The notes: generated from the sequence alone by a model not told the origin. A stretch of DNA of 64,000 bases from an uncultured Chloroflexia bacterium (GCA_963755995.1 CAVWLQ010000003.1:981580-1045579); one strand, 5' to 3'; positions 3,675-32,978 are shown, counted from the stretch's first letter. Made by a program: numbers and translations.

Positions 3675-3722
3675 AGTGGAGGCGACGACCGGATTCGAAC
3701 CGGTGAATAGAGGTTTTGCAGA
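3675..3722 (-). repeat. orphan 3' fragment of tRNA-Cys (anticodon loop to CCA plus 2 nt): distal att-like direct repeat
   Basis: 48/48 nt identical to 32931..32978 (AGTGGAGGCGACGACCGGATTCGAACCGGTGAATAGAGGTTTTGCAGA). No tRNA 5' half follows it, and the sequences diverge at 3723 versus 32979. Confidence 0.9.
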
Positions 3723-3804
3723 ACTGGGGATAGGCCAATCCCCCACCCAATTCGTGCTCAGTGTATCCGCTGGAGTGGGCTGGAAACCGGTCGAGGATGA
3801 CACG

Positions 3805-3828
3805 TTCTGCCGACCATTCTGCCGACCA
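3805..3828 (+). repeat. tandem 12-mer TTCTGCCGACCA x2, sub-terminal island repeat
   Basis: Perfect tandem copies at 3805-3816 and 3817-3828. The surrounding roughly 36 bp (GATGACACGTTCTGCCGACCATTCTGCCGACCATCT) recurs at 32662-32697 with a few mismatches. Confidence 0.8.
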
Positions 3829-3849
3829 TCTGCTGGGCCGGACGCCGAC

Positions 3850-4329
3850 CTAACCAACAGCTCCAACACGCGGTTCGAGCACGACGACAGCCGTCTTCCT
3901 GGTCCGCATCGCCGCCCAGGCGTCGTAATCGTCGCTGAACTCGCGCCAGCGGGCCCATAGTCGATCACGTTCCTCGCCTTCCGCGGCGCGACCGCGGACT
4001 TTTCGGGGTCCGTCCACCAGCTGGACCGTCGTGTCGGGCTGTGCCTGGAGGTTCAGCCACCAGGCGGGCTCTGCCTCCGCCCAGCCATTCATGGCCAGGG
4101 TGACCAGGTTCGGTCCGTCTTCAAGGTAGCCGAAGATCGCGACCCGTGGCTGCCCTGAGCGTCGTCCGAGCGTCCTCAGGCGCATCATCCCGAACTTGCT
4201 GCCGGGCTCTGGTGGGCGGAGGCCGATCCGCCCTGCTGTGAACCTAAACAGCGCGCGGTGGAGTATCCAGGCAGCACGGACGATCGGACGCGGGGGAAGC
4301 GTCGCCGCCTGCTTTCGCGCGGCGGTCAT
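3850..4329 (-). CDS. deazaflavin (F420)-dependent nitroreductase family protein (TIGR00026 / DUF385, Ddn-like), copy a
   Basis: 159 aa with family-typical GRRSGQPRVAIFGYLEDGPNLVTLAMNGWAEAEPAWWLNLQAQPDTTVQL...ERDRLWARW. Its ATG overlaps the stop of the upstream DUF4386 gene (ATGA at 4326-4329). Confidence 0.85.
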   Translation of the reverse strand: MTAARKQAATLPPRPIVRAAWILHRALFRFTAGRIGLRPPEPGSKFGMMRLRTLGRRSGQPRVAIFGYLEDGPNLVTLAMNGWAEAEPAWWLNLQAQPDTTVQLVDGPRKVRGRAAEGEERDRLWARWREFSDDYDAWAAMRTRKTAVVVLEPRVGAVG

Positions 4330-5126
4330 GCCGCACCTGCAACCGCTGTTGCGGTGGCCGGTGATGGGGCAACGATCGGCAACACGTCTCCGGATCGAGC
4401 AAGCAGGGTGGCGGCAGCACCGGGCTGGAAGCCCCTGAAGATGAGGTACAGACCAAGGATCCCGATCTCCCAGACGATCTCGAGGACCGTCGCGAGGCCC
4501 TGCGCGGGGGAGCCGAGCTCGATGACACCGAAGAGGATGGCGATACCGGAAGCCATCACGAGCGGGCCACCGATCATGCCGAACATCGTCAGGCGGCGCG
4601 AGAGCAGGCCCGAGCGGTACATGAGATAGCCCAGCAGCAGCCCGTTCCCGAGGCCGGACATGAAACCTGGCCCGAGCAGGAAGGTCCAGTCATGGACGGC
4701 GACGAGTGACTGGCTGGCGACGAGCAACGAGCCGGGATCGGCGCCGGCCCCGTCCTGCCGGAGCGTCTCAACGGCCAGGAGGCTGAGCATGCCGACGACG
4801 ATGAGCGCGGCTTCGATGAAGCGAGCGGCGACGTAGCTGAGTGCGAGGGTCTCGTTCTGGCGCCGCAGGAGCGGGAACAACACCATCGCGGTGGCGATGT
4901 TGGCGATCACGGTGAGGATCTCGAAGAAGGCGCCGAGGGACACGCTATTGCCGGCACCAGGACCGAGGACGTAGGCCGGGTCGTTGAGGACCGGGCCGTA
5001 AGCCAGGACGCCGGGGATGGCAAAGACGAGGGTCAGGACGAACAAGATGCCGACTGCAAACGCAGTCTTTCGCTGGGCGTCCATCGGGACTCGGTTCGTT
5101 GCTGGGGTTCGAACGGGGTTCGTCAT
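4326..5126 (-). CDS. DUF4386 membrane protein, copy a
   Basis: 266 aa, multi-TM. RKTAFAVGILFVLTLVF...LGAFFEILTVIANIATAMVLFPLLRRQNETLALSYVAARFIEAALIVVG... matches the DUF4386 pattern and the paralogues at 26291 and 30909. Confidence 0.8.
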   Translation of the reverse strand: MTNPVRTPATNRVPMDAQRKTAFAVGILFVLTLVFAIPGVLAYGPVLNDPAYVLGPGAGNSVSLGAFFEILTVIANIATAMVLFPLLRRQNETLALSYVAARFIEAALIVVGMLSLLAVETLRQDGAGADPGSLLVASQSLVAVHDWTFLLGPGFMSGLGNGLLLGYLMYRSGLLSRRLTMFGMIGGPLVMASGIAILFGVIELGSPAQGLATVLEIVWEIGILGLYLIFRGFQPGAAATLLARSGDVLPIVAPSPATATAVAGAA

Positions 5127-5177
5127 GTCGATCTCCTTGTCGGTAGTCGGTAGGTGTATGCCAAGGCTCGACGTGGG

Positions 5178-5864
5178 CTATGCGGCGCTGGTCTGATCGG
5201 GCTGCGACAGCACCAGGGCAGGGAGTGGTTCAGAGGCTGGCGCTCGCTGCTCCGCCCAGAGCGCGTAACCCAGCCATGCGAGACCCAGGCCGATCGGCAC
5301 CGCCGCGATACGGGGTGCGTCCAGGGCGGCCGTCAGGGGCGCCGATACGATGATCCCGAAGGCGAACAGAGCGGCCGCCGGACGGGGCAGGATCCGCGCT
5401 CGGATGGTGGCGATGCCAAAGACGATGCAACCACCGAGGAACAGGGCGCTTGAGATCGAGTAGATCGTCGGCAAGGCACCGAGATCGAGATCGGACGGCG
5501 CATTCTCGACCATCCCCAGCAAGCCGGTGACATAGGCTGGCGACAACGCGGCGAGGATCGGCTCGATGAATGCCTCGACGAAGGTGAACGCAGCCGTGAT
5601 CAGAAGCCCCAGGCTCAGCGCGATGTAGCCGACGAGGCCGAGCCAGCCCGCCTTCTCGACCTGACGGGCGTAGATCCCGGTGAGGCCGGCCAGGAAGAGG
5701 ACCAGCATCACGCAGCTCGCCTGGTGGATGGCCGACCAGGCCGGCGTCGTGACCGATTGCAATGTCTCGGGCGGGTGGATGGGCTGGATGACCACGAACA
5801 GGACTCCGGCCGCGATCGCGGCGACGCCAGTCGAGCGAATCAGTCCAGGGGCAGTGACCTTCAT
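5178..5864 (-). CDS. polytopic membrane protein of unknown function (present only in cassette copy a)
   Basis: 228 aa with about 6 hydrophobic segments and good coding appearance. Its ATG overlaps the stop of the upstream small gene (ATGA at 5861-5864). Confidence 0.65.
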   Translation of the reverse strand: MKVTAPGLIRSTGVAAIAAGVLFVVIQPIHPPETLQSVTTPAWSAIHQASCVMLVLFLAGLTGIYARQVEKAGWLGLVGYIALSLGLLITAAFTFVEAFIEPILAALSPAYVTGLLGMVENAPSDLDLGALPTIYSISSALFLGGCIVFGIATIRARILPRPAAALFAFGIIVSAPLTAALDAPRIAAVPIGLGLAWLGYALWAEQRAPASEPLPALVLSQPDQTSAA

Positions 5865-6184
5865 CGTGTCCTCCGTTCATGTGAGATGTAGGAATCGGTT
5901 GTAGAGATGGGTTCGGTGCCTGCTGAGGTCGCGAGTGGACGTTCCGACTCGGACTCGTTGACCGAGATCAGCGTCACGCCCATGTCGCGCAACTTCTGGA
6001 GCAGACCATGGAGAGCCGCCTGATCGGCAACTGGTCCGGAGACCAGGGTCGTGCCGTCGCTCGCGTGGGTCAGGGACATCCCGCCGAGCCAATCGGCCCA
6101 GCTGCCGTCGAGGCGTCCCTTCAGGCGGATCTCGTACCGCGTCGCCTCGTGGCGCTGGTCAGTCGATCCGCGGCGCTTGTCCAT
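5861..6184 (-). CDS. conserved small protein of unknown function (RYEIRL...DQAALHGLLQK-R family), copy a
   Basis: I prefer the internal ATG at 6184, which is preceded by GGAAGGAG. The core RYEIRLKGRLDGSWADWLGGMSLTHASDGTTLVSGPVADQAALHGLLQKLRDMGVTLISV aligns with the copies at 25984 and 30615. Confidence 0.75.
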   Translation of the reverse strand: MDKRRGSTDQRHEATRYEIRLKGRLDGSWADWLGGMSLTHASDGTTLVSGPVADQAALHGLLQKLRDMGVTLISVNESESERPLATSAGTEPISTTDSYISHERRTR

Positions 6185-6261
6185 CTGGCTCCTTCCTCTG
6201 TCCCACTTGTCGGCGATGCCGGTGGCTCCGACGGCCGGGGAGTCCAAGGTGGACGGGAAGG

Positions 6262-6290
6262 TGGGGACGTCGCCTCCCCATCACTGGGGA
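6262..6290 (-). promoter_or_regulatory. tripartite operator-like repeat TCCCCA-N4-TGGGGA-N7-TCCCCA (read on the minus strand), between LAL-a and small gene a
   Basis: Half-sites lie at 6285-6290, 6275-6280 and 6262-6267, with a fourth at 6297-6302. Copy b has the identical architecture at 25892-25920. Confidence 0.55.
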
Positions 6291-6305
6291 AAGCGATGGG
6301 GAAAG

Positions 6306-9038
6306 TCAGCGGTCGCCGACTCGCGAAAGGAGGCCGAGCTCTTCGCCGCGCCGAACGGCGGCCCGGCGGCTATTCACCCCGAGCTTTGCGTAGATGCTCT
6401 TGGTGTGCGAACGGACGGTGCTCAGCCCAACGACCAACTCGTCCGCGATGCCGGAGCCATCAAGATCCGAGGCGAGCAACCGAAGGACATCAAGCTCCCG
6501 CTCGCTGAGCGGCTCAGCGAGACTTTGTCCATCGCCTGAGGGACGGCCGATTCGTCCGAAGGCGTCGACGAGGCGACGAACGTACTCCGGCATGATGTCG
6601 CGTTTGGCGGCCGCCGCCAGCATCGCTGCCATCGGGGCACCCTCGCCCACGAACGATCGGACATAGCCGTCCGGCTCTGCGGTGGCAAGTGCTCGACCGA
6701 GCGGCTCGAGCCCTGCCGTGCTGCGACCGCGCTCGTGCTGAGCCAGCGCCTGCAGGATGAGGATCTCGATGACACTCCGCCACCGCTCCCCCGTTTCGGC
6801 GGCGATGAGCAGCCGCTCGAGAAGTGCGACGGCTTGTTGGATCGAGCGCGGATCATGGACCCGGGTCCCGCGAGCGAGGAGCACCCTCGCGAGGGTGATG
6901 TACTCGTACTCGCTCAGGTAGCTGAGGTCGTCGTCCACTGACAGACCGCGCTCGCCCACCCAGGCCTCTGCCTCGCGCACATGGCCCCGGGCGGCATGGA
7001 TTCGCGCTACTTGCGCCGGGATGGGGCGAACGAGCGGGTAGTACTCGCTCACAAACACACGCTGAGCATCAGCAAGCAATGCGAGGGCACCGTCGGCATC
7101 CCCATCAGCCATACGAAGCTGTGCCTTGGCCACCCGCGACCGGTATGGGTTCTGGGCCAAGCCAGCATTGTCCCCGAGGTCATCACTCTGTCGCAGATGA
7201 CCAGCCGCGCCATCGAGATCGTTCCACTCGAGCAACAGCTCGCTCATCCCGACGTGCATGTCGCCTGCACCACGGAGGACCGTCGTCCGGTCAGTCGCCA
7301 TGCGCAAGCCGCGTTCGTAGGTTCGCATCGCCTCGTGCAGACGACCTTGGGCGACGCGAATCTCCGCCAGTGGTCGGTTGCAACCGATCGCGTCGACGGC
7401 GTGGCCCGCACGCTGCAAGGAGGCCATCGCCTCGGACCAGAAGCCATGGGCCGCCTCGAGGTCGCCGTTCCCCCAATGCGCGAAGGCGAGAAACCCCGCC
7501 CCCCCGGCTCGCCCGAGCGGATCGCCATCGCCGGCCAGGGTGAAGGCTTTCAGCGCGAAGGCTTCTACGCGCTCGGGGTCACCCTCGAGTTGCGCCTGGG
7601 CGGCTCGATACAGGGCGACCGTACTCGGCAACCGCTGGAACTCAGCTTCGTCCGCCACGACCATCGGCCCGGGCGCGATCGTCTGGTTTTCACCCTTGCC
7701 GGATGTCGGTTCCAGCCATCGCTCGGCGCCTTGCAGGAGCGCTTCGATGTCGGCGACCTCGCCATGGGCCATGAGGGTTCCGACATACCCCACGCTCAGG
7801 ACCGGCCGGACCTCGAATAGATAATCGGGAAGCTGCTCGAACCACTGTCGCATCGTCCCCTCTTGGCGCGCCCGGCGGAGCCCCGGGATCGCCAACTCGA
7901 TCATGCCGGCTGCCCGCTCGAAGTCTTCCCCAGCCAGAGCGTGGCGAATGGCGTCGTGTGGCTCGCCACTCTGCTCGAACCAACGGCTCGCGCGCCGGTG
8001 GAGGTCAAGGGCGCGGTCCGGCTCTTCGCGCACCAGGCGCGCCCGGAGGACATCCGCGAACAGGTGGTGGTATCGATACCACTCGCGCCGAGCATCCAGG
8101 GGGATCACAAAGAGATTCCGCCGATCGAGGAGCTCGAGCATGCTCTGGCCGCCGTCGAGACCCGTGACCGCATCGCATAGTGGGCCGGACAGCCGATCGA
8201 GGATGCTCGTCCGTAGGAGGAATTGGCGGATGTCCTCGGGTTGGCGCTGCAGGACTTCCTCGGCGAGGTAGTCGACGACGAAGCGATCGTCTCCAGTGAA
8301 GCTCGCGATGAAGGCACCGATGTCGTCGCGGCCCTGCATCGACAAGGCGGCAAGCTGGAGCGCCGCGATCCAACCCTCGGTCCGCTCCTCCAGCGCGGCG
8401 ACCTCGTCCGACTCGAGGTCCAGATCGGCCGCCTGATTCAGGTATGCCGCGGCCTCGTCATGCGTGAAGCGCAGTTCTGCCGCCCGTACCTCAACGAGTT
8501 GCCCTTGCGCCCGGAGGCGCGCCAGGGGGAGGGCTGGATCGGCGCGCGTTGTGATCGCGACGTGCGCTGATGGTGGCAGGCACTCGACCAGGAACGACAC
8601 CTGGTCGAGGACATCGCTCGCGTCGATGACATGGAAGTCATCGAACACCAACATGACATCGGAGCCGACGGACCCAATCTCGTTAGCGAGTGATGTCACG
8701 ACCGTCTCGATGGGCGGTGGTCGGGACCCCTCCACCATCGCGATGGTCTCTGCGGCCGACGGCACCGCCCGGTGGAACGCGGTGGCGACGCTGAACCAGA
8801 ACGCACTGGATTCGTTCTCGGCTGTATCGAGCGACACCCAGACCGGGAGCAGGTCGTCTGAGACCGAGGCGAGCCAAGTGGCAAGCAGCGTGGTCTTGCC
8901 GAACCCAGGCGGCGCGGAGATGAGAGTGACCTTAGCGTGAGGTGCTCCACGCAACCGCTCCGAAAGCCGATCCCGGCGCACCAAGTCCTCGCGCGGGCGA
9001 GGAACGTAGAACTTCGCATCGGGAAGGGTGCGGGCCAC
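6306..9038 (-). CDS. MalT-like large ATP-binding LuxR-family (LAL / STAND) transcriptional regulator, copy a
   Basis: 910 aa. It has an N-terminal P-loop ([13 protein letters not shown]), a long helical/TPR-like middle region and a C-terminal LuxR HTH ([12 protein letters not shown]...[24 protein letters not shown]). Confidence 0.9.
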
Positions 9039-9235
9039 GCGTCAGGGTATCGCGAGCGCTATCGAGCTGCTCCGCCGATGGGCCCGGGCCGATCTGTCGC
9101 AAGAACGCCGCAGAGCGTCCGAACGTCGTCAGTCTCGGTGCTTGGGGTCGTGATTTCGTGCGACCCTACACTCTCATTGAGGCGTCCGTGACCCGCAGTT
9201 TGCCGCAGCGGCCGCCTCATCCCCAGGAGCTACCA

Positions 9236-11548
9236 ATGACCGGCAAAGCCACCGCAACACGCGGGAACCTGCCGGCGGAGCTGACAAGCTTCATCGGCCG
9301 GCGCCACCAACTCCAAGACGTGAAGTCTGCCTTGACGGGTGCGCGTCTCGTCACCCTTGTCGGTCCTGGCGGGGTTGGTAAGACTCGCTTGGCACTGCGG
9401 TCAGCGAGCGATCTGAGCCGCGGCATCCCCGACGGCGCGTGGATGGTCGAACTCGAGGGACTCCGGGACTCCGAGCTCGTCACCAAGGCTGTCATGACAT
9501 CGCTGGGGCTCCGAGATGAGTCGAGCCGTTGGCCCGTCTCCAGGCTGATCGACTACGTGGCGTCGAAACAGCTTCTACTCGTCCTCGACAACTGCGAGCA
9601 TTTGATTGACGCCTGCGCGGTGCTCTCAGACGCCATTCTCCGTGAGGCCCCGGGCGTGCGGATTCTTGCCACCAGCAGGCAGCCCCTCGGTGTCGCAGGC
9701 GAGACCGTCATCCAGGTCGGCCCGTTATCGGTACCGGAAGACGAGGGGCAGCTCGTGCCGGAACGGATCGCCCAGTGGGACGCGATCGCCTTGCTCGTCG
9801 AGCGAGCGCGTGAGGCTGGCGCGGCGTTCGAGGTGACCCCAGAGAACCAGAAGGCCGTGGTCGAGCTGGCGCGCCGCCTGGATGGGATCCCTCTGGCGAT
9901 CGAGCTCGCGTCCGTCCGTCTCCGCACCCTCGGCCTTGATCAGCTCGTCGAGCGACTGAACGACAGGTTCCATCTGCTGGTCGGGGGAAGCAGGACCGCA
10001 CCGTTGCGCCACCAAACCCTCGAAGCCACCATCGCCTGGAGCCATGATCTGCTGGGTCAAGACGAGCAGGCCCTCCTGCGCTGCCTGTCTGTGTTCGCCG
10101 GTTCGTTCAGCCTGGAGGCGGCCGAGACGGTCGGCCAGGAGAGCGCGACGATGAAGGCCGACCTGTTGGACGTCCTGACCAACCTCGTCGAGCGATCTTT
10201 CGTCATCCGCGAGGGAACGAGTGGAACAGCGCGTTTTCGAATGCATGAAACGATGCGCGAGTTCGCTCGGCTGCGGCTCCTCGAGGCGGACGAGGCGGCG
10301 GCGGCCAGGAGCGCGCACCTCGCCTACTTCGCTGGCCTCTGCCGGTTCAGGGAGGCCGATGTCGCACATGCGGACGTTGCGGGCAGGCTCGCCTGGCTCG
10401 ATGAACTGGACCTCGAAGCGGACAACATCCGCGCCGCTCTGCGGAACTGCCTCGCTGATCCCGATGGCGCGGATCTCGGTCTGACGATGGCGGGCGGTCT
10501 CGGACAGTACTGGAGAAACCGCGCCGTGATAGAGGGCGCCCACTGGATCGACGCCCTGCTCGACCGTCGTGGTGAAGACGACGCCATCCGAAATGAAGCC
10601 CTGTTCGTCAAGGTCGATCTTGCCGTGGTGAAGGGCGACTATGCCGCTGGCCTGAACGCGGCCACCGAAGCCAGCGGGATCGCCCGCCGCTTGAAGGCCG
10701 ACGCGTTGCTGGTCCGGATCCTCGCGAACCAGGCCGCGCTTCAGGTCATTGGGGGCGACCTGTCGGGAGCTCGCGCGACCTCGGCTGACGCTACAGCGCT
10801 CGCGGCACGCCTTGGCGACGACATGTCGTTCATCTCGGCCGCCCAGTCCGATGCCTTCATCGCGTTCCTTGATGGCGACTTCGTCCGGATGCGCGACGTC
10901 GGCCTGGCCGCCGCGGCGCGCTGCCGAGAAGCGAATGAGGCCTTCATCCTCCCAGTACACCTCACCAGCGCGGGAATGGCCGCCTTGATGCTCGGTGAGT
11001 CTGCCGTTGCCGAGACGGCCCTCGTCGATGCCCTGCAGGCCAGCATCGTCATCGACGACCGTCCTGGGTTGGTGCTGAGGATGGAGATGCTCGCAAGCAG
11101 CGCTGCGATGACGGGCAGGGCGCAGCGTGCCGCTGAGCTATTGGGGGCATGCGAGATGCTGCGCGGTCGTATCGGCGCAGAGCTCAGCCCGTTCACGCGT
11201 CAACTCGTCGAGGCGGCTCGAGCACAGGCGCAGGCTGCGCTCGGCGAAACCCGCTTCAAGAAGGCCTTCGACGCGGGAGCCCACCTCGACCGGGACGAGG
11301 CCGTGGGGCTCGCGATCGGCGCGAAGGTGGATCGGGATCCCGCGCCGACGCGCGACCGAACCGGTCACCCGCTCGGCAAACGCGAACAAGAGGTGGCGGA
11401 GCTGATCGCTGTGGGTTTGAGCAACAAAGAGATCGCCTCTCGCCTATTCCTGTCCGAGCGCACCGTGGAGACCCACGTCTACAACATCCTCAACAAGCTT
11501 GGGGTGAACTCCAGGGTCAGCATCGCCTCCTGGGTCACTGCCAAGTAG
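9236..11548 (+). CDS. AAA/NB-ARC-like ATPase - TPR - LuxR HTH transcriptional regulator (COG3903-type)
   Basis: Start chosen at ATG 9236, preceded by AGGAG ([26 protein letters not shown]...). It carries a P-loop ([13 protein letters not shown]) and a C-terminal LuxR HTH ([42 protein letters not shown]). The upstream 98 codons of ORF 8942..11548 are rejected. Confidence 0.85.
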
Positions 11549-11815
11549 CGACGCGCCCTCGAGGCGGGTGATCTCGCGGAGACGCCCAGGCGGCAGGAGG
11601 GCCAGGCTCATGAAACGTCGCGCCGACTCCATGCTGGCCGCCTCGATGAGGCAGACAAGCCCGCCGTCGTCACGATCGTGGCCCGTAAGGAACGTGCGCA
11701 CAGCGATCGGCGACTCCGGCATCCGGGTCGTCGCTGCGTCCAGCATCCGCGCGGCGCGCTCCAGGTCGCGGTCGCTTGCGTCCGCCATGTGGACCTCGAT
11801 CAAGTAGATAGGCAT
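11444..11815 (-). CDS. DUF4242 family protein
   Basis: [10 protein letters not shown]...[30 protein letters not shown]... fits the roughly 90-aa DUF4242 pattern. The last 35 or so codons overlap the convergent LuxR gene, so the true stop may lie earlier or be obscured by an indel. Confidence 0.6.
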
Positions 11816-11871
11816 GGGCCTGATGTTCGTTGGCCCATCGGGCTTTCCACATCGCGGGGAACACCGAGCGG

Positions 11872-11906
11872 GTACTTAGAAGCAAGCCCTGCGGGTCTCT
11901 AAGTAC
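11872..11906. promoter_or_regulatory. inverted repeat GTACTTAGA-N17-TCTAAGTAC in the divergent DUF4242 / qor-like promoter region
   Basis: Perfect 9-bp arms at 11872-11880 and 11898-11906. They are AT-rich in a very GC-rich context. The left arm starts 57 nt from the DUF4242 start codon. Confidence 0.5.
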
Positions 11907-12005
11907 TCGATAGGTGTTCGCCCGGATGGGCCTGGCGACCCTCATCGGTAGGTTGCAGTCAGGCGCATTCCAGTCGGGTGCGCCAGCCGCCACCGAGGAG
12001 ATCCG

Positions 12006-12980: not shown

Positions 12981-13054
12981 CGCGCCACCCCACTGCGCTC
13001 GATCCCGACACTCTGCGGCCGTCCGGCCGCCCAATCCATCGACAAGGAGACGAA

Positions 13055-13831: not shown

Positions 13832-13936
13832 GCACCGGACTCGGTGCCAAATAGCCCATTCATCGGCGCGTCGGGCCAGTCTCGACGCGTCGGTGCTGCC
13901 ATCCAGACCTGATCTCACGCAAACCTTGAAGAGGAG

Positions 13937-14356
13937 TTGGTCATGAACAAGGCAACGATCACCAGACTGTTCATCGGCGGCGGACTTGCCATCGTCACGG
14001 GAGCCATCGTCGCCGTCATCGCCATCGGGATCGCGATGGCCAACGGCATCTTCGTCGTGAACGGCCCCGATGTCGTAGGAGTCAAGGAAAGCGTGCTCGC
14101 GTTCTCCCTTCTCGGTCTCGCCATCGTCGGTACTGTCGCGATCCTGGCCGGTCTGATCGCGGGTCTTGTGGCGTGGCTCGGAGCGCTGATGAATACCTGG
14201 CAGTTGGACAGCAAGGCCTGGTTCGTCGCTCTTCTGCTGTTTGGGATCTTCAACTTCGGGTTCTTCGCGATGATCGCGTTCCTCGCCGCCGGACCGGATG
14301 GCAAGACCGACGCGGAACTTCGGGGAGCGCAGGCCTCCCGAGCGACACCGGCATGA
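13937..14356 (+). CDS. small membrane protein, unknown function
   Basis: 139 aa with 4 predicted hydrophobic helices. GAGGAG lies upstream. Its stop overlaps the SDR start (ATGA at 14353-14356). Confidence 0.6.
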   Translation: MVMNKATITRLFIGGGLAIVTGAIVAVIAIGIAMANGIFVVNGPDVVGVKESVLAFSLLGLAIVGTVAILAGLIAGLVAWLGALMNTWQLDSKAWFVALLLFGIFNFGFFAMIAFLAAGPDGKTDAELRGAQASRATPA

Positions 14357-17721: not shown

Positions 17722-17732
17722 GGAAGCCCACC

Positions 17733-21649: not shown

Positions 21650-21742
21650 GGTCACGACCGTGAGCAACGAGGAGCTGCCGAGTGGAGCCGATCCATCCAA
21701 GACAGCGACCGCGCATGGACACGCCCGCACGGTCGCCGCGAC

Positions 21743-25821: not shown

Positions 25822-25891
25822 CCCAGGCGCGAAGCCCCGGTCGGCCGCCGCAAGTCGCCTCGCGGCTCGATCGAAGATTCATCACCTCGAA

Positions 25892-25920
25892 TCCCCACAT
25901 GTGGGGATGCTCGCTCCCCA
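25892..25920 (+). promoter_or_regulatory. tripartite operator-like repeat TCCCCA-N4-TGGGGA-N7-TCCCCA upstream of small gene b
   Basis: Half-sites at 25892-25897, 25902-25907 and 25915-25920. The first two form the perfect 18-bp palindrome ATCCCCACATGTGGGGAT. The repeat lies 63 bp upstream of ATG 25984. Confidence 0.55.
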
Positions 25921-25983
25921 CGTCCGCTCCGATGCTCGGGACCACGCCGGCAGACAGATCGCAGGACCGGCGGAAGGGAGCAG

Positions 25984-26259
25984 ATGAGCGGAACGACACG
26001 CATCGACGGTGACCGTCACGAGGACGGCCGCTACGAGATTCGCCTCAAGGGACACCTGGATGGCCGATGGGCTGCCTGGTTTGACGGCCTGAGCCTCAGC
26101 CACGAGAGCGACGGCGTCACCGTCATCCGTGGCGGCGTACCCGATCAGGCGGCGCTCCATGGCCTGCTCCAGAAGGTGCGCGACACCGGACTACCACTGC
26201 TCTCGGTGACGCACGTCGACGCCGATCCGACCGGGACGCCAGGCGCCGAGCCTCGATAG
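25984..26259 (+). CDS. conserved small protein of unknown function (RYEIRL...DQAALHGLLQK-R family), copy b
   Basis: 91 aa, with GGAAGGGAG upstream. Core: RYEIRLKGHLDGRWAAWFDGLSLSHESDGVTVIRGGVPDQAALHGLLQKVRDTGLPLLSV. Confidence 0.8.
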   Translation: MSGTTRIDGDRHEDGRYEIRLKGHLDGRWAAWFDGLSLSHESDGVTVIRGGVPDQAALHGLLQKVRDTGLPLLSVTHVDADPTGTPGAEPR

Positions 26260-26290
26260 CCCAATACGAACGAACGAAAGGGAAACCGAC

Positions 26291-27100
26291 ATGACAACCG
26301 CCGATCGAACCGCGGCAACGAAACGACCGCCGATGGACTCGATGCGGAAGACCGCGCTCGTCGCGGGCATCCTCTACCTGATCACCTTCATTTCGGTCGC
26401 GACACTGACCCTCTACGGCCCCGTGTTGAAAGATCCGGCCTACATCCTGAGCTCCGGAAGCGACGCCGGCCTGCGTTGGGGCGCCCTCATCGACGTGATC
26501 GTCGCGCTCGCCGGCATCGGCGCCGCCATCACGCTGTACCCGGTCGTCAGGCGCCAGAACGAGGCCGTCGCCCTTGGGTTCGTTACCTCCCGCGTCATCG
26601 AGGGCGCGATGCTCCTCACGGGTGTCGTGAGCCTTCTCTCGCTCGCGTCGCTGCACCAGGTGGGCGCCGCGGCCGGCGCCGACTCGACCGCGCTTCTCAC
26701 CAGTGGCGCCTCGTTCGTCGGGACGTACAACGCGGCGTTCCTGATCGGCGGGACCCTCATGCCCGCGGTGAATGCCCTTCTGCTCGGGTACCTGATGTAC
26801 CGATCCAGCCTCGTGCCGCGACTCATTCCCGCGATCGGACTCGTCGGCGGCGTCTTGATGACGTCTTCCGCGATCGGACAGATCCTCGGCATCAACGAGA
26901 AGATCTCGGTGTGGTCCCTCATCGCACTCCTGCCGATCTTTCTCTGGGAGCTGTCACTCGGCATGTGGATGACCTTCAAGGGGTTCCGCAAGGAAGCGCC
27001 GCTGATGGTCGAGGCCGCGGCCGAGGCGGAGAGCCCGCACGGATCGGCACCGGCAGTCCTGTCACCGATCCCCGTCGCGACGACGGCGGGTGCAGCGTGA
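26291..27100 (+). CDS. DUF4386 membrane protein, copy b
   Basis: 269 aa, intact. RKTALVAGILYLITFISV...ALLPIFLWELSLGMWMTFKGFRKEAP. Confidence 0.85.
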   Translation: MTTADRTAATKRPPMDSMRKTALVAGILYLITFISVATLTLYGPVLKDPAYILSSGSDAGLRWGALIDVIVALAGIGAAITLYPVVRRQNEAVALGFVTSRVIEGAMLLTGVVSLLSLASLHQVGAAAGADSTALLTSGASFVGTYNAAFLIGGTLMPAVNALLLGYLMYRSSLVPRLIPAIGLVGGVLMTSSAIGQILGINEKISVWSLIALLPIFLWELSLGMWMTFKGFRKEAPLMVEAAAEAESPHGSAPAVLSPIPVATTAGAA

Positions 27101-27564
27101 CCGCCACCGAGGCGCGGCCGACTCGTGTCCCGCCGCGAGTGGTCATCCGTGTTGTCTGGCTGCTGCACCGCGCACTCCTTCGGTTCAGCGGGGGACGGGT
27201 CGGGCTGCGGGCTCCGGGCGACAAGTTCGGGCTGCTGCGCCTGACGACGGTTGGGCGCCGCTCGGGTCAGCCACGAGTCGCGATCGTTGGGTACTACGAG
27301 GACGGCCCGAACCTGGTCACGTTGGCGATGAACGGCTGGGCCGAGGCCGACCCCGCGTGGTGGCTGAACCTGCAGGCGCACCCGGACACCGTCGCCGCGT
27401 TGGATGACGGCGTGCGTTACGTCCGTGGTCGCGCGGCGGAAGGCGCGGAGCGCGATCGGCTCTGGGCTCGGTGGGTCGAGTTCAGCGACCAGTACGACGC
27501 TTGGGCCGCGCTGCGCTCCGGGAGGACCGCGGTGGTCGTGCTCGAGCCTCGCGCCGCCGCGTGA
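27097..27564 (+). CDS. deazaflavin (F420)-dependent nitroreductase family protein (TIGR00026), copy b
   Basis: The GTG at 27097 overlaps the DUF4386 stop (GTGA). 155 aa: ...GRRSGQPRVAIVGYYEDGPNLVTLAMNGWAEADPAWWLNLQAHPDT...ERDRLWARW... Confidence 0.85.
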   Translation: MTATEARPTRVPPRVVIRVVWLLHRALLRFSGGRVGLRAPGDKFGLLRLTTVGRRSGQPRVAIVGYYEDGPNLVTLAMNGWAEADPAWWLNLQAHPDTVAALDDGVRYVRGRAAEGAERDRLWARWVEFSDQYDAWAALRSGRTAVVVLEPRAAA

Positions 27565-27690: not shown

Positions 27691-30441
27691 GTGACCAGTT
27701 CACTGCTCGAAACCAAGTTCTACCCCCCGAGGCAGCGCAGTGGCCTGGTGCCCCGGCCACGCTTGACAGAGCGCCTCGATCGCGGCGTCCAGTCCAAGTT
27801 GACGCTCGTCTCAGCACCAGCTGGCTTCGGGAAGTCCACGCTCGTGGCCGAATGGCTTGCGGCGACACCCGCCGAAGGACCGCTCGCCGCGTGGCTATCG
27901 CTCGACGCGAGCGACAACCATCCGATGGCGTTCTGGACTCACGCGATCGTGGCCCTGCAGAAGGTGGAGCCAGCGGTCGGCGCCAGTTCGCTGTCCCTGC
28001 TCGAAGCATCCGGCCCATCGATCGAGACCGTCCTTGCGCCGCTCCTCAACGACCTCGACCTTGTAGCGAAGGACATCGTTCTGGTGCTCGACGACTACCA
28101 CACGATCGAGGCACCGGAGATCCAGGTCGGCATCACGTTCATGCTCGAGCACCTTCCGGCCAATGTGCATCTGGTGATCACCACCCGCGCCGATCCGGTC
28201 CTGCCGCTGGCGCGAATGCGGGCGCAGGGGGAACTGGTCGAGGTCCGTGCCGCGGACCTGCGCTTCACGCCGGACGAGGCCACGGCCTACCTCAACGACG
28301 TGATGACGCTGGGGCTGACTGCTGGAGATGTCGCCACGCTGGAAGGTCGGACCGAAGGCTGGATCGCGGCTCTCCAGCTCGCGGGACTCTCGATGCAGGG
28401 GCGAAACGATCACGCCGCCTTCATCGCCGGATTTGCCGGCGATGACCGCTACATCGTCGACTACCTGGTCGAGGAGGTCTGGCAGCGTCAACCGGACCAC
28501 CTCCGCGACTTCCTGTTGCAGACCTCGATCCTGGCCCGCATGACCGGCCCACTCTGCGATGCCGTCACCGGCCAGGCTGGCGGCAAGGCGACCCTGGAAG
28601 CGCTGGATCGACGGAACCTGTTCCTGATCCCGCTCGACGACCGGCGACGGTGGTATCGCTACCACCACCTGTTCGGCGACGTCCTGCAGACGCGTCTGCT
28701 CGACGAGCAGCCCGAAGTCCTCGCGGAGCTGCATCGGCGGGCAACCGAGTGGTACACGCAGGAAGGGGAACCCGACGAGGCGATCCGCCACGCGATCGCG
28801 GGCGGCGACTTCGAACGTGGGGCGGACTTGGTCGAGTTGGCGATCCCCGCGATGGGCCGTGACCGTCGGGAGGCGACCTTACGTCGGTGGCTCGAGGCGC
28901 TCCCGGAAGAGTCGATCCGCGTCCGCCCCGTGCTGAGTGACGGCTATGCCGGTGCGTTGCTCGTCCGCGGCGAGATCGACGGGGTGGAGGCACGCTTGGC
29001 GGACGCCGAGCGGTGGCTCAAGCTGACGGCCGAGTCGCTTGCCGGCGAGGGATCCCGGCCGGTCGCGATGGTGGTCGCGGACGAAGCGGCGTTCCGCAGT
29101 CTGCCGACGTCGATCGCCATCCACCGAGCCGGGTTGGCCCGGAAGATCGGGGACGACACCGCGACGGTGACCCACGCGCGCCGCGCCCTCGAGCTCGTCG
29201 GCGAGCACGATCATCTCGGGCGCGGTGGCGGCGCCGCGCTCCTGGGCCTCGCTTACTGGGCCGTCGGCGACTTGGACGCGGCGCAGCGGTCCTACGCCGA
29301 TGCCATTTCCAGCCTGGAGAAGGCGGGGCACCGATCGGACGAGATCGGCCTGGCCCTCGGCCTGGCCGACATGCAGATCGCGCAAGGCCGTCTCCACGAT
29401 GCGCTGCGGACCTACGAACGAGGACTGGAGCTTGCAACAGGTGAGGGCGGCGACGTCCTCCGTGGAGCGGCTGATATGCACGTAGGCATCAGCGAGATCC
29501 TCCGTCAGCGCGATGACCTCGTCGGCGCGGCGCGTCACCTGCAGTCGGCCTCGGAGCTCGGTGAGGAGAATGGCCTGCCGCAGAACCCGTACCGGTCGCG
29601 CGTGGCCGCCGCTCGGATCAGGCTGGCGGTGGGAGACGTCGAGGCGGCCCTCCAACTCCTGGGGGAGGCGGACCGCCTGTACGCGAATGACTTCTCGCCC
29701 GATGTGCGCCCGGTCAGTGCCCTTCGGGCACGGGTCTGGATCACGCAAGGACGGCTCCCCGAGGCCCTGAGCTGGGCACGCGAGTCTGGCCTTTCAGCCG
29801 CGGATGAGCTCGACTATGTCCGCGAGTTCGAGCACATCACCTTGGCCAGGCTGCTGCTCGCCCAGGGAGTGCGCGACCGACCCGGCACCGGCCGCGGAGA
29901 CGCGATCGATCTCCTCGAGCGGCTCCTCGCGGCAGCCGAGGACGGCGGGCGAACGGGCAGCGTGATCGAGGTCCTGGTCGTCCAGGCTCTCGCTCGGTGG
30001 GCGCTCGACGACGCGCCGGGTGCGCTCGGGTCGCTCGAGCGCGCGGTGAAGCTCGCGGAGCCGGAAGGCTACGTCCGCGTCATCGCCGACGAGGGCCCGA
30101 CGATGGCAGCGCTGCTGCGTTCGGTGACACAGCGGCGGGACGCGTCCGACTACCTGCGCACACTCCTGGCCGCCACCGTCACCCCGGCTGCGCCGGCGCC
30201 GGCCGATCGGTCACTGGTCGAGCCGCTCAGTGAACGTGAACTCGAGGTCCTCCGCTTGCTCGGCGGCGACCTCGACGGCCCTGACATCGCGCGGGAACTC
30301 ACGGTGTCGTTGCCCACCGTCCGGACGCACACCAGCAACATCTACTCGAAGCTGGGCGTCACGAGTCGCCGCGCCGCGGTCCGTCGCGCCAGCGAGCTCG
30401 GTCTCCTCCAGAGCGGCGACGGGCGACGCACCACCGGCTGA
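27691..30441 (+). CDS. MalT-like LAL / STAND-LuxR transcriptional regulator, copy c
   Basis: 916 aa, GTG start with GAGG upstream. MTSSLLETKFYPPRQ..., P-loop VSAPAGFGKSTLV, C-terminal HTH LPTVRTHTSNIYSKLGVTSRRAAV. I estimate roughly two-thirds identity to copy b by eye. Confidence 0.9.
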   Translation: MTSSLLETKFYPPRQRSGLVPRPRLTERLDRGVQSKLTLVSAPAGFGKSTLVAEWLAATPAEGPLAAWLSLDASDNHPMAFWTHAIVALQKVEPAVGASSLSLLEASGPSIETVLAPLLNDLDLVAKDIVLVLDDYHTIEAPEIQVGITFMLEHLPANVHLVITTRADPVLPLARMRAQGELVEVRAADLRFTPDEATAYLNDVMTLGLTAGDVATLEGRTEGWIAALQLAGLSMQGRNDHAAFIAGFAGDDRYIVDYLVEEVWQRQPDHLRDFLLQTSILARMTGPLCDAVTGQAGGKATLEALDRRNLFLIPLDDRRRWYRYHHLFGDVLQTRLLDEQPEVLAELHRRATEWYTQEGEPDEAIRHAIAGGDFERGADLVELAIPAMGRDRREATLRRWLEALPEESIRVRPVLSDGYAGALLVRGEIDGVEARLADAERWLKLTAESLAGEGSRPVAMVVADEAAFRSLPTSIAIHRAGLARKIGDDTATVTHARRALELVGEHDHLGRGGGAALLGLAYWAVGDLDAAQRSYADAISSLEKAGHRSDEIGLALGLADMQIAQGRLHDALRTYERGLELATGEGGDVLRGAADMHVGISEILRQRDDLVGAARHLQSASELGEENGLPQNPYRSRVAAARIRLAVGDVEAALQLLGEADRLYANDFSPDVRPVSALRARVWITQGRLPEALSWARESGLSAADELDYVREFEHITLARLLLAQGVRDRPGTGRGDAIDLLERLLAAAEDGGRTGSVIEVLVVQALARWALDDAPGALGSLERAVKLAEPEGYVRVIADEGPTMAALLRSVTQRRDASDYLRTLLAATVTPAAPAPADRSLVEPLSERELEVLRLLGGDLDGPDIARELTVSLPTVRTHTSNIYSKLGVTSRRAAVRRASELGLLQSGDGRRTTG

Positions 30442-30504
30442 CGCGCGTCCTCTCAGGCGTGCCCGCGTAGCGACTCGGTCGCTCCTGAAAATCATCACGC
30501 CACT

Positions 30505-30532
30505 CATCACGTGTGCTGATGCGCGCTCATCA
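30505..30532 (+). promoter_or_regulatory. tripartite repeat CATCA-N7-TGATG-N6-CATCA (part of three TCATCAC repeats) upstream of small gene c
   Basis: TCATCAC occurs at 30492, 30504 and 30527. An inverted TGATG lies at 30517-30521. The outer direct repeats are 23 bp apart start-to-start, the same as in copies a and b, but the half-site sequence differs. Confidence 0.4.
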
Positions 30533-30614
30533 CATTCGCCTCCACGGTGTGTCCAGTGACTCAGGCCGGTACTGCCGGCCCGAGATCCAGATGGCAACAC
30601 GCACGAGGAGCGGA

Positions 30615-30890
30615 ATGACCGAACCACACACCTTGACACCCCGTCCCCCCGAAGCCGGGCGCTACGAGATCCGGCTCGCGGGGCACCTCGACGCGCGCTG
30701 GACCGCCTGGTTCGACGGACTGACCGTCGCCTACGAGAGCGACGGGACCACCGTCATCAGCGGTCAGGTCGCAGACCAGGCAGCGCTCCATGGCCTGCTC
30801 CAGCGCGTGCGGGACCTTGGCCTACCCCTGGTATCGGTCGAGCGGGTCGACATCGACCAGCCCGACCTGCCCACCAACCTCCTTCGATAG
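30615..30890 (+). CDS. conserved small protein of unknown function (RYEIRL...DQAALHGLLQ-R family), copy c
   Basis: I prefer ATG 30615, which has GAGGAG 5 nt upstream and gives 91 aa, the same as copy b. Core: RYEIRLAGHLDARWTAWFDGLTVAYESDGTTVISGQVADQAALHGLLQRVRDLGLPLVSV. Confidence 0.78.
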   Translation: MTEPHTLTPRPPEAGRYEIRLAGHLDARWTAWFDGLTVAYESDGTTVISGQVADQAALHGLLQRVRDLGLPLVSVERVDIDQPDLPTNLLR

Positions 30891-30908
30891 TCCCGAAAGG
30901 ACACAGAC

Positions 30909-31707
30909 ATGACTACCAACATCGCGAACCGACTCTCGATGAGCTCGATGCGCAAGATCGCGCTCGTCGCGGGCGTCCTGTACCTGCTCACGTTCATCAG
31001 CTCGATCCCGGCCGTCTTCCTGCAGAGCCCGGTCCTGAACGATCCCAACTTCATCATCGGCAGCGCCGGCGCCGACACCCAGGTCCGCCTCGGCGCCCTC
31101 TTCGACATCGTCAATAGCCTCACCGCGATCGGGACCGCGATCGCGCTCTATGCGGTCATCAAGCGCCAGAGCCAGAGCTTCGGCATCGGCTTCGTCTGCT
31201 CGCGGCTGTTCGAAGGCACCGTCCTCATGATCGGCGTCATCAGCATCCTGTCGATCGTGACCCTGCAGCAGCCTGGCGCGACCGGAGCCGAGGCCTCACT
31301 GCTGGTCACCGTGCAGCACACGCTCGTGACCGTCCGCAATTGGACTTTCGTGCTCGGGACCGGCGTCCCTGCCCTCAACGCCTTCCTGCTGGGCTGGATC
31401 ATGTACAAGTCGCGCCTCGTCCCGCGTGCGATCCCGGTGATCGGACTCATCGGAGCGCCGCTGTTCACCTCCTGGATCATCGGCTACGTCCTCGGCGTCA
31501 CCGAGCCCGGTACCGCATGGCACGGGATCGGCGGTCGCTCCGATCTTCATCTGGGAGCTGTCCCTCGGCCTGTGGATGACCTTCAAGGGGTTCCGCAAGG
31601 AGGCTCCGCTCATGATCGAGGCCGCCGCCGAAGATGCCAGCCTGGCTGACTCCGCCAGCGTCACCCGCTCGTCGATCGGCGTCGCAGCCAACGCGGGTGC
31701 CGCGTGA
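30909..31707 (+). CDS. DUF4386 membrane protein, copy c, +1 frameshift near 31533
   Basis: ORF 30909..31649 loses the family C-terminus after ...TAWHGIG. Removing one G (GG 31533-31534) restores ...VAPIFIWELSLGLWMTFKGFRKEAPLMIEAAAE... ending at TGA 31705-31707. Length is 799 nt, which is 1 mod 3. Confidence 0.78.
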
Positions 31708-32207
31708 CGGCTATCCGCGAGGGGGCGCCGCGGACACCGCCGCGCCCCCTGATCCGCATCTTCTGGACGCTGCACCGCGCGGCGTACCGGGTCAGCGGGG
31801 GAGGCTTCGGCCTCTCCCGACCGGTCGCCGGCAGCAAGTTCGGGATGCTGCGTCTCGCGACCGTCGGACGTCGGTCCGGCCAGTCGCGGGTCGCGATCAT
31901 CGGCTACTTCGAGGACGGCCCCAACCTCGTCACCCTGGCCATGAACGGTTGGGGCGAGAAGGAGCCGGCCTGGTGGCTGAACCTCCAGGCGCTGCCCGAG
32001 ACGACCGTCGAACTCCCCGGCGAGGCGCGAGCTGTTCGAGCCCGCGCCGCAGCTGGCGAGGAACGCGATCGGCTGTGGGCGACGTTCAGCGACTACCCCG
32101 GCTGGGGTGACGACATCGACGGTCTCGCCCGGCGTCGGTCGTCGGAGACAGCGGTCGTCGTCTTCGAGCCTCGGGCGGCAGCTGGCAAGATCGGAGTCGC
32201 GTCATGA
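31704..32207 (+). CDS. deazaflavin (F420)-dependent nitroreductase family protein (TIGR00026), copy c
   Basis: The GTG at 31704 overlaps the restored DUF4386 stop (GTGA). ...GRRSGQSRVAIIGYFEDGPNLVTLAMNGWGEKEPAWWLNLQALPETTVEL...ERDRLWATF... Confidence 0.85.
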   Translation: MTAIREGAPRTPPRPLIRIFWTLHRAAYRVSGGGFGLSRPVAGSKFGMLRLATVGRRSGQSRVAIIGYFEDGPNLVTLAMNGWGEKEPAWWLNLQALPETTVELPGEARAVRARAAAGEERDRLWATFSDYPGWGDDIDGLARRRSSETAVVVFEPRAAAGKIGVAS

Positions 32208-32608
32208 CAGCCATCGCTTTCCGTCCGGGGCGCCTGGCGCCACGGCACCTCTGGCTGATCCCGGGGATCGCCCTCGGGCTCTACGCCAATGTCGTCGCCG
32301 GGCAGCATGCGCTCGGTTTGGTGCCGGTATTGATCTTCGGGATCGTCCCGCACCTTTCGGTCTTCGTTGGGACCGGCCAGTCGCACGCCCCGGGCCAGCT
32401 CGCACCCCGCGCCGTCCCGCTCTTCAATGCGATGCACCACCCCGCCATGCCGCTGGCGCTGCTCGTGGTCGCCGCGGTTGGCATCCTCCCGCCGTTCTGG
32501 TTCGTCGGCGCACTCGCGTGGCTCGGGCACATCGTGGCCGACCAGGGCATGGGCAATGGGCTGCGGACGAAGGATGGCTGGCGCCGTCCGCCGTGGCTGG
32601 CGCGATGA
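32204..32608 (+). CDS. small membrane protein, distantly DUF4260-like
   Basis: 134 aa with 4 hydrophobic segments. The pattern ...FGIVPHLSVFVG...LFNAMHHPAMPLALL...LAWLGHIVADQGMGNGLRTKDGW parallels the DUF4260 gene at 19220. Its ATG overlaps the previous stop. Confidence 0.55.
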   Translation: MTAIAFRPGRLAPRHLWLIPGIALGLYANVVAGQHALGLVPVLIFGIVPHLSVFVGTGQSHAPGQLAPRAVPLFNAMHHPAMPLALLVVAAVGILPPFWFVGALAWLGHIVADQGMGNGLRTKDGWRRPPWLAR

Positions 32609-32615
32609 CGCCGCA

Positions 32616-32650
32616 CCTCGGCGAACCTCGCCGAGGTCTCGTGTTCGTTG
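32616..32650 (+). terminator. hairpin plus T-rich tail after the last island gene
   Basis: CCTCGGCGA-ACC-TCGCCGAGG is a perfect 9-bp stem followed by TCTCGTGTTCGTTG. Confidence 0.55.
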
Positions 32651-32670
32651 CTCAGACTGAAGATGACTCG

Positions 32671-32694
32671 TTCTGCCGACAATTCTGCCGACCA
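32671..32694 (+). repeat. tandem 12-mer TTCTGCCGACAA / TTCTGCCGACCA, sub-terminal island repeat (right end)
   Basis: Matches the tandem pair at 3805-3828, in the same orientation, within a roughly 36-bp imperfect repeat. Confidence 0.8.
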
Positions 32695-32865
32695 ACCTCG
32701 GCACGACGTCACCCCTGATCCGGGAGCCCGCGGTAGTGGCCTTCGACGTCGAGACAGACGGGAACCGGAGTGGCTCCGGTCCTGGCGACAGGGTGTACAT
32801 CACGATCCTCCAGAAGCAGTGAACCATCGAATCGCGAACTACGAGAACGGCCTCGTTGCCCATCT

Positions 32866-32885
32866 TGCCGACCATATGCCGACCA
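32866..32885 (+). repeat. two further TGCCGACCA 9-mers, 11 bp apart
   Basis: TGCCGACCA at 32866-32874 and 32877-32885, ending 46 bp from the att-like core. Confidence 0.7.
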
Positions 32886-32916
32886 AACGAAGACCCGCTG
32901 GTCACCCAGCGGGTCT
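32880..32916 (-). terminator. island-borne hairpin terminator immediately downstream of the intact tRNA-Cys
   Basis: AGACCCGCTGG-TCAC-CCAGCGGGTCT is a perfect 11-bp stem. On the minus strand it is followed by TCGTTTGG. It lies 17 nt after the tRNA 3' end. Confidence 0.6.
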
Positions 32917-32930
32917 GTTCGTGTTCGGAA

Positions 32931-32978
32931 AGTGGAGGCGACGACCGGATTCGAACCGGTGAATAGAGGTTTTGCAGA
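32931..32978 (-). repeat. att-like 48-bp core within the intact tRNA-Cys (proximal direct repeat)
   Basis: Identical to 3675..3722. It covers the anticodon loop through CCA plus 2 downstream nt. Confidence 0.9.

Follow-up and report, generated by a model that had tools for sequence, protein, structure and literature searches.

The window analysed here is a stretch of 64,000 nucleotides from an uncultured Chloroflexia bacterium (GCA_963755995.1, CAVWLQ010000003.1:981580-1045579), and it carries, between positions 3675 and 32978, a 29.3-kb island bounded by two copies of the 3' part of a cysteine tRNA gene. The 48-mer AGTGGAGGCGACGACCGGATTCGAACCGGTGAATAGAGGTTTTGCAGA was found in two exact copies on the same strand, at 3675-3722 and 32931-32978, with 0 mismatches; no third copy was detected at up to three mismatches, 0 being expected in shuffled sequences. 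An intact 77-nt tRNA-Cys(GCA) was called by both ARAGORN and Rfam on the minus strand at 32933-33009, and the repeat corresponds to its nucleotides 32-77, from the anticodon loop to the CCA end, plus two nucleotides past the CCA. Repeat mapping thus places a proximal core copy (32931-32978, minus strand; attL-type junction) within the intact gene, the integration target, and a displaced 3' part of tRNA-Cys, the distal core (3675-3722, minus strand; attR-type junction), at the opposite end. At the left copy no tRNA was called with either tool, and the DNA 5' of it did not match the 5' half of tRNA-Cys. The tRNA-Cys heads an array of Cys, Gln, Gly and Phe genes in the right flank, the last three of which (33045-33313, minus strand) are kept in all relatives, while the ancestral downstream neighbour, tRNA-Leu(TAA), was called at 297-383 on the minus strand. 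The initial annotation, made from the sequence alone, had reported the perfect repeat, the identity of the right copy, the missing 5' half of the left copy and the tRNA array, and each of these was borne out, the repeat at 48 of 48 positions.

The sequence outside the left copy points at its origin. In many relatives, including the loci L081, L093, L138 and L100, the DNA immediately downstream of the complete tRNA-Cys aligns with the adjoining 45 bp (3630-3674), and therefore the left copy is the original end of the tRNA-Cys gene with its own trailer. Within this trailer, hairpin B (3643-3665, minus strand) represents the native terminator of tRNA-Cys, moved along with the tRNA fragment (B' flank). 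The empty tRNA-Cys site, which the initial annotation had proposed to look for, was found in L100 and L109, where tRNA-Cys and its trailer are followed within ~60 bp by a homologue of the ion-channel gene in the window's left flank (2200-3174) and then by tRNA-Leu(TAA); this evidence is of species rather than strain level. Across the 48 relatives with both tRNA-Cys and tRNA-Leu(TAA) in the fetched stretch, the gap between the two genes was 13-7,926 bp (median 3.0 kb), as compared with 32.5 kb in the window. Exact-protein look-ups for strain-level variants, performed with the DUF1232 protein, a right-flank protein and Qor, returned no match in the genome collection, and the attB/attR junction pattern had none in metagenome contigs.

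The sub-terminal non-coding stretches at both ends of the island had been described initially as lacking any recombinase remnant, and this holds, but they are not featureless, as they contain three pairs of arm-type-like repeats. Five exact TGCCGACCA motifs occur in the 64 kb (0.75 expected), at positions 3808, 3820, 32686, 32866 and 32877, all on the plus strand and all in these two stretches. Motifs of this type are arranged as tandem pairs, namely pair 1 at 32866-32885 (plus strand, 48-67 bp from the 3' end of tRNA-Cys), pair 2 formed by TGCCGACAA at 32674 and TGCCGACCA at 32686, and pair 3 at 3808 and 3820. Pairs 2 and 3 each lie inside a 33-bp unit on the plus strand, located at 32662-32694, ~240-270 bp from the proximal core, and at 3796-3828, 74-110 bp inside the distal core, correspondingly; the two units are identical at 31 of 33 positions. 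Hairpin A (32891-32916), with an 11-bp stem, would be a terminator supplied by the island to the regenerated tRNA-Cys (P' arm), and it is kept directly after tRNA-Cys in the sister species described below and in about ten other relatives. Read in the sense of the tRNA, the layout is core, hairpin A, pair 1, 165 bp, pair 2, cargo, pair 3, 75 bp, displaced core and hairpin B. If the ends were joined at the core, an attP of ~380 bp would result in which both arms carry repeats, the usual design for lambda-type integrases; considering this expected layout, the TGCCGACCA pairs are candidate integrase arm sites.

No mobility gene was identified in the island. Domains of integrases, resolvases, transposases, relaxases and Rep proteins were absent from 30 open reading frames (ORFs) scanned singly against Pfam, 27 of them within the island and a few being high-GC shadow ORFs. 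The same domains were absent from a further 267 ORFs (stop-to-stop, at least 62 aa, all six frames of 3501-33199, annotated frames excluded, two batches), a search in which remnants shorter than ~60 codons were beyond reach. As a positive control, the intact integrase of the related locus L143, confirmed separately to be a tyrosine recombinase, was spiked into the second batch, and the models Phage_integrase, Phage_int_SAM_3 and Phage_int_M gave one match each, to this control. The six-frame set added only a solute-binding protein (21743-23071, plus strand), the third F420H2-dependent reductase and weak fragments. Furthermore, tblastn with the L143 integrase and with the decayed integrase of L137 had no match in the 64-kb window at E <= 10, and the uncharacterised ORFs of the island had no functional match in PHROGs or NCBIfam. 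A regular-expression match to box II of tyrosine recombinases at 30528-30734 was rejected as spurious, since it lies inside a small cargo ORF. The claim that the island is devoid of integrase and other mobility genes therefore stands up to the search of six-frame translations with hidden Markov models that had been suggested for it.

Composition, which the initial annotation had suggested to compare with the flanks, also sets the island apart. Its GC content was 66.8% against 70.9% in the right flank, and GC at third codon positions (GC3) was 0.80±0.04 in 21 island genes against 0.92±0.03 in 16 genes of the right flank, without overlap (Mann-Whitney p=3e-7); tetranucleotide profiles change at ~33-35 kb. 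The 3.3-kb left flank is intermediate (GC3 0.84).

The interval between tRNA-Cys and tRNA-Leu(TAA) is a recurrent insertion hot spot, with elements at all stages of decay. In L093, L087 and L137, displaced fragments of tRNA-Cys (nucleotides 33-77), all starting at the same nucleotide and matching the window fragment in extent, lie at a distance of 1.2-5.8 kb behind the intact gene, and a shorter one (nucleotides 48-77) was found in L132. Mismatches of the fragments to their own tRNA numbered four in L093, one in L087 and none in L137, and these counts form a decay series. In L143 (MFD05442.bin.1.77), an intact tyrosine integrase of 436 aa directly follows tRNA-Cys, and a gene for an AAA_25 (RepA-like) ATPase comes next. 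Of the integrase in L137, only the C-terminal ~85 residues are left; they include the H-x-x-R-H ... L-V-G-H ... Y box and terminate ~255 bp away from the tRNA. L097 has a frameshifted integrase copy next to tRNA-Cys. Tandem pairs of ~11 bp occupy the same positions as in the window, with GTTAGCATCGC twice in L143, CTCTGGACGCCA twice in L137 and TGGTAGCAACG/CGGTAGCAATA in L087. The L143 element thus resembles the window island in its target gene and in having two tandem 11-bp repeats at ~45-70 bp from the end of the tRNA, but differs in having the integrase and the ATPase, in the repeat GTTAGCATCGC and in sharing no cargo. The arm repeats of all three integrase-bearing elements at this tRNA-Cys (L143, L137 and L097) differ from those of the window, and the genome, viral and metagenome collections searched yielded no intact element that combines TGGTCGGCA arms with an integrase. 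Together with the native trailer and the empty sites, the fragments and integrases of the relatives support the initial assignment of the repeat as an attL/attR signature of tyrosine-recombinase insertion.

Two of the islets at this site were att-flanked and without intact integrase. The one in L137 (2340-8176, 5.8 kb) carries DUF922, NOV_C and an uncharacterised protein of 400-500 aa, and that in L132 (6400-9196, 2.8 kb) carries DUF2652, AP_endonuc_2 and GFO_IDH_MocA; loss of the integrase therefore seems to be the rule here. In L090 and L122, hairpin and pair 1 lie directly after tRNA-Cys with only 0.5-0.9 kb left to tRNA-Leu, and are most simply scars of lost islands. It should be added that the 539-bp tRNA-Cys/tRNA-Leu(TAA) spacer of L090 contains a tandem repeat (GGGCGGACAGCGGACT)n at 11570-11630, just after the hairpin and the TGGTCGGCA pair, and that tRNA-Gln and tRNA-Cys, separated by ~35 bp in all other relatives, have about 1 kb (11338-12357) inserted between them in L087.

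Searches with the arm motifs gave a related junction elsewhere. The exact 24-nt double motif had no match in genome or viral contigs; a looser motif-pair pattern had at least 120 matches in genome contigs, mostly random and in unrelated taxa, none of those listed adjoining an integrase; the P-arm spacer pattern had no match in genome contigs and a 21-nt arm pattern none in viral contigs. Scanning metagenomes with the arm unit retrieved two contigs, L282 and L281 (Ga0315268, Ga0315272), with the same pair, spacer and core. From arm to core, L282 is 84% identical to the window, the motif block at 26 of 26 positions, with two substitutions in the core and a diverged spacer. On its inner side are SLAC1, TauE and FmdE genes, unrelated to the cargo of the window, with no integrase within the 4.2 kb available, and on its outer side a hairpin and an enolase gene in chromosomal DNA unlike the flank of the window. 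A reading of L282 as a free attP (P arm, core and a sequence like hairpin A) was rejected, the far side being enolase and other chromosomal genes; because of this chromosomal outer side, L282 is an attR of a related island with other cargo in another host.

Relatives of both flanking and island genes were all Chloroflexota metagenome-assembled genomes, and flanking proteins matched only those of Candidatus Limnocylindrales (Limnocylindria), mostly from soil. An actinomycete host, suggested by the F420 and LuxR/STAND genes, was rejected on these grounds. The closest sampled genome, MFD00392.bin.2.99, represents a sister species, whose locus was merged from L139 and L001; its proteins are up to 98% identical to those of the right flank and 91% for DUF1232. 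There, ~15 kb separate tRNA-Cys from a 27-nt tRNA-Cys fragment (100% identical), which is followed by a homologue of hairpin B, a P-type ATPase and DUF1232. At the proximal junction the sister sequence follows that of the window across hairpin A and into pair 1, of which it has half, and then jumps to the homologue of window positions 19655-15382, so that a segment corresponding to 15382-19789 (81% nucleotide identity) adjoins its tRNA-Cys. Further cargo is present in another order and orientation, including ABC (ATP-binding cassette) genes, a LuxR and a cassette of a small ORF, DUF4386 and F420H2-dependent reductase, and both arms of the sister island are eroded. Among 80 relatives, cargo homologous to that of the window was seen at the tRNA-Cys site in this species only. 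Identity at third codon positions between window and sister species was 0.84-0.92 in core genes, 0.72-0.82 in left-flank genes and 0.62-0.85 in island genes, the last range overlapping that of the left flank. A single insertion before the split of the two species, followed by erosion of the arms in the sister, is the simplest reading; independent insertions of related elements in the two species are possible.

Since the sister species carries a rearranged island with eroded ends at the same site, the insertion is probably old. Of the two alternatives offered in the initial annotation, an old, immobilised element or one mobilised in trans, this finding favours the former. As a separate observation, the sister locus L001 encodes, at 5989-9928, the P-type ATPase together with a plastocyanin-like copper-binding protein between the displaced tRNA-Cys fragment and DUF1232; both are absent from the window, and therefore a separate gain or loss took place outside the island.

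Taken with the lack of mobility genes, these data make it likely that 3723-32930 is the remnant of an integrative element inserted at tRNA-Cys(GCA) by a tyrosine recombinase and deprived of its integrase since then. In the sequence of events that we propose, the recombinase would have inserted the element into the anticodon-loop region of the gene in a Candidatus Limnocylindrales chromosome, and recombination of the attP core, an element-borne copy of the 3' part of the tRNA, with attB in the gene would have regenerated the tRNA with element DNA, that is, core, hairpin A and arm-site pairs 1 and 2. By the same event, hairpin B and the original 3' part would have come to lie 29 kb away, beside the other element arm with pair 3. 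Loss of the integrase, and of any genes for excision or transfer, would have followed, leaving both att sites and a cargo of three diverged cassette copies, further regulators, Qor, a short-chain dehydrogenase/reductase (SDR), DUF4260 and a sugar ABC importer. The island is probably older than the divergence from the closest species sampled, and it is not capable of moving by itself.

Several observations weigh against this reading. No remnant of the integrase is left, and its former presence is argued by analogy with the other elements; nor did the collections searched contain an intact member of the element family with the same arms and an integrase. The repeat, at 48 of 48 positions, is also better preserved than would be expected of a relic dating back to the species split, given that the trailer beside the left copy is only ~79% identical between window and sister species. 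The fragment is perfect in both, at 48/48 in the window and 27/27 in the sister, and a rough Poisson estimate based on the divergences between the two genomes put the probability that 48 nt stay unchanged at ~0.0007-0.04. Possible explanations are gene conversion with the intact tRNA, ongoing use of the att sites by a trans-acting integrase, and later independent insertions. Furthermore, hairpin A and pair 1 also follow tRNA-Cys in the island-free L090 and L122, and these could have been left behind by lost islands or could in part be native. Finally, part of the cargo may have accreted in situ rather than arrived with the element.

The last of these points has a stronger form, in which only a small element integrated and most of the 29 kb is accessory DNA native to the lineage, gathered later by duplication and recombination. 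Consistent with this are the three paralogous cassettes, one pair of which is in tandem (65-75% nucleotide identity), the inversions and deletions by which the cargo order differs between window and sister species, the LuxR-like and Qor-like homologues elsewhere in Limnocylindrales genomes (L038, L067) and the variability of the tRNA-Cys to tRNA-Leu interval in all relatives. However, the whole interval is uniform in GC3 and tetranucleotides and distinct from the core flank, homologues of the cargo at this site are confined to the sister species among 80 relatives, and inside the island neither an att or tRNA fragment that would mark a tandem array nor any other junction was detectable. We regard this scenario as unlikely.

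Quite unlikely, in our judgement, is that the island is still mobile, as a satellite or as an element mobilisable in cis or trans, its intact attL and attR being used by a cognate tyrosine integrase, whether from elsewhere in the genome or from an incoming element. Searches yielded neither a cognate integrase nor an attP junction nor an empty site at strain level, with 64 kb of the genome seen; the copy in the sister species is without both arms, and the island has no oriT, relaxase or packaging gene. What speaks for mobility is the state of the ends, as the core is kept at 48/48 although neighbouring non-coding DNA is ~20% diverged from the sister species, the three arm pairs are all intact, and the unrelated contig L282, where the spacer has diverged and the same arm and core lie beside different cargo, shares the 26-bp motif block without a difference. 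Moreover, elements of this design are mobilised by integrative and conjugative elements (ICEs) in Streptococcus (PMC6323972, PMC5704250). The perfect repeat could also be maintained by gene conversion with the intact tRNA. A broader version, also decidedly doubtful, would be a family of integrase-less cargo islands in Limnocylindria whose att sites (core and TGGTCGGCA pairs) are kept functional across speciation by an integrase elsewhere; it would explain a perfect displaced fragment amid diverged DNA, and the perfection of the fragment is the only support for it.

Very improbable is a chance segmental duplication of the tRNA end or an assembly artefact, for although the source is apparently a metagenome-assembled genome, the repeat boundary is at the anticodon loop as in four other loci, the native trailer accompanies the fragment, arm repeats flank both copies, and the same architecture occurs in the independent assemblies of the sister species (27-nt fragment and trailer) and of L282. 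Scarcely credible, too, is a recombinase of an undescribed type among the unannotated island proteins (the 228-aa ORF at 5178-5864 and the small ORFs of 125-145 aa). The GC3 of these ORFs is of coding type, Pfam, PHROGs and NCBIfam gave no match for them, and the att-flanked islands of L132 and L137 are likewise without intact integrase, but the small ORFs belong to the triplicated cargo cassette and not to the ends, L137 retains a classical integrase remnant, and an ordinary tyrosine integrase accounts for the site in L143.

The remnant of an integrative element, as we read the island, can be placed among known systems. Cis-mobilisable elements (CIMEs) are those that have lost integration and transfer genes yet keep attL and attR; ICEberg 2.0 lists 235 of them, and one, CIMEL3catR3, is mobilised by ICESt3 in Streptococcus thermophilus (PMC5704250, PMC6323972). 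The window island likewise has att sites formed by direct repeats, located where a conserved gene has its 3' end, with the perfect 48-bp core and arm-like pairs at both ends as putatively functional sites, and holds cargo only, being without integrase, excisionase, relaxase and transfer genes, as presumed for a decayed integrative element. It differs from the Streptococcus CIMEs in its host, an uncultured member of the Limnocylindrales in the Chloroflexota and not of the Firmicutes; in addition, no related ICE or integrative and mobilisable element (IME) with the same att arms was found, and no remnant ties the island to a conjugative ancestor. The Islander database of islands in tRNA genes (tDNA) describes an anticodon-centred 'A' type of attP as common, recorded for 2,083 tDNA islands, and filters out those without an integrase, described as having 'lost an integrase gene' (PMC4383910). 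With these islands the window shares an intact tRNA at one end and a correctly, i.e. directly, oriented displaced 3' fragment at the other, spanning the anticodon loop to the 3' end, an unoccupied target site in related genomes and a typical size of 29 kb, but the required internal tyrosine integrase gene is lacking. Neither an integrase of its own nor conjugation, mobilisation or virion genes are present, and in structure the island corresponds to a CIME or a decayed tDNA island, not to an ICE, IME or prophage.

In Streptomyces, pSAM2 (at tRNA-Pro) and SLP1 (at tRNA-Tyr) have identity segments of ~50-110 bp from the anticodon loop to the tRNA 3' end, with arm-type repeats near the core and GC-rich DNA, and they carry int, xis, rep and tra and excise. 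The window island has a similar identity segment, near-core repeats and GC-rich DNA, but is without int, xis, rep and tra and belongs to another phylum. It is an ordinary, well-preserved relic of tyrosine-recombinase integration in an under-studied phylum and reveals no new mechanism; att-flanked islands without integrase are already well known, and the value of the present one is therefore descriptive and not conceptual. Limnocylindria are an abundant, uncultured class of soil Chloroflexota, and we know of no mobile-element biology described for them, the literature not having been searched for it. Here the att architecture (core, terminator and three arm-repeat pairs) and the integration site could be mapped cleanly in this class, and the locus illustrates how a lineage gains a bank of F420-dependent reductase cassettes controlled by STAND/LuxR regulators. 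Wider interest attaches only to the question of why the displaced fragment stays perfect.

As regards the cargo, Pfam scans of the single and six-frame ORFs revealed five MalT-like STAND/LuxR regulators, five DUF4386 proteins, three F420H2-dependent reductases, a Qor-type alcohol dehydrogenase, an SDR, two DUF4260 proteins, ABC permeases and a solute-binding protein. The gene content given in the initial annotation was thus largely recovered, with the exception of DUF4242, which was not found in Pfam scans at E <= 0.01. A cassette of LuxR, small ORF, DUF4386 and F420H2-dependent reductase occurs in three copies, of which those at 23092-27467 and 27703-32080 are in tandem (67% nucleotide identity) and the third, at 3869-8933, is inverted (65-75%). 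The inverted module (3850-9038, minus strand), delineated with Pfam, NCBIfam TIGR00026 and paralogy, comprises the reductase, DUF4386, uncharacterised proteins of 228 and 128 aa and a MalT-like STAND/LuxR. It is followed by STAND/LuxR regulator 2 (8942-11548, plus strand), the Qor-type zinc alcohol dehydrogenase, DUF4386 and SDR (12006-15243, plus strand), and regulator 3 (minus strand) with DUF4386 and DUF4260 (both plus strand) at 15382-19789, all identified with Pfam. The ABC importer (19942-23071) consists of two BPD_transp_1 permeases on the minus strand and an SBP_bac_1 binding protein on the plus strand (21743-23071). An ORF of 670 aa at 20648-22660 (minus strand) was discarded as a high-GC artefact, the real genes being a BPD_transp_1 permease on the minus strand and the divergent SBP_bac_1 gene; no gene for an ABC ATPase was seen in the island by Pfam scans. 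The second module (22930-27560, plus strand) holds regulator 4, a small ORF, DUF4386 and the third F420H2-dependent reductase (~27.0-27.56 kb), and the third module (27691-32608, plus strand) regulator 5, a small ORF, DUF4386 and a reductase, followed by DUF4260. The STAND ATPase-LuxR regulators probably switch on the neighbouring deazaflavin-dependent reductases and membrane proteins when triggered by a ligand, and such a predicted role, as far as family annotations go, would suit the reduction of quinones or nitro-aromatics.

The left flank (384-3642) is chromosomal but itself variable, and is syntenic with the sister species at 86-90% nucleotide identity. It encodes an uncharacterised ORF (890-1702, minus strand), an Ion_trans_2 channel (2200-3174, plus strand) and DUF1232 (3176-3583, minus strand), as annotated with Pfam.

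Two minor observations were made away from the island. In Prochlorococcus sp. AG-388-F11 (QCGP01000003.1; L228, 5944-6135), a tandem TGGTCGGCAAG TGGTCGGCAAG lies in AT-rich DNA 95 bp downstream of tRNA-Cys, with motif, orientation and position as in pair 1 of the window and no integrase in the next 2 kb; the resemblance could be due to chance or to a widely shared arm-site specificity. In the sister species (L139), a perfect 49-nt 5' fragment of tRNA-Val (7980-8028) was found 1.2 kb upstream of the intact tRNA-Val (9243-9319), and the window is without such an insert between tRNA-Val (35068-35144) and tRNA-Leu(GAG). This fragment would mark a second insertion into tDNA, with a scar of the rarer type that consists of a 5' fragment.

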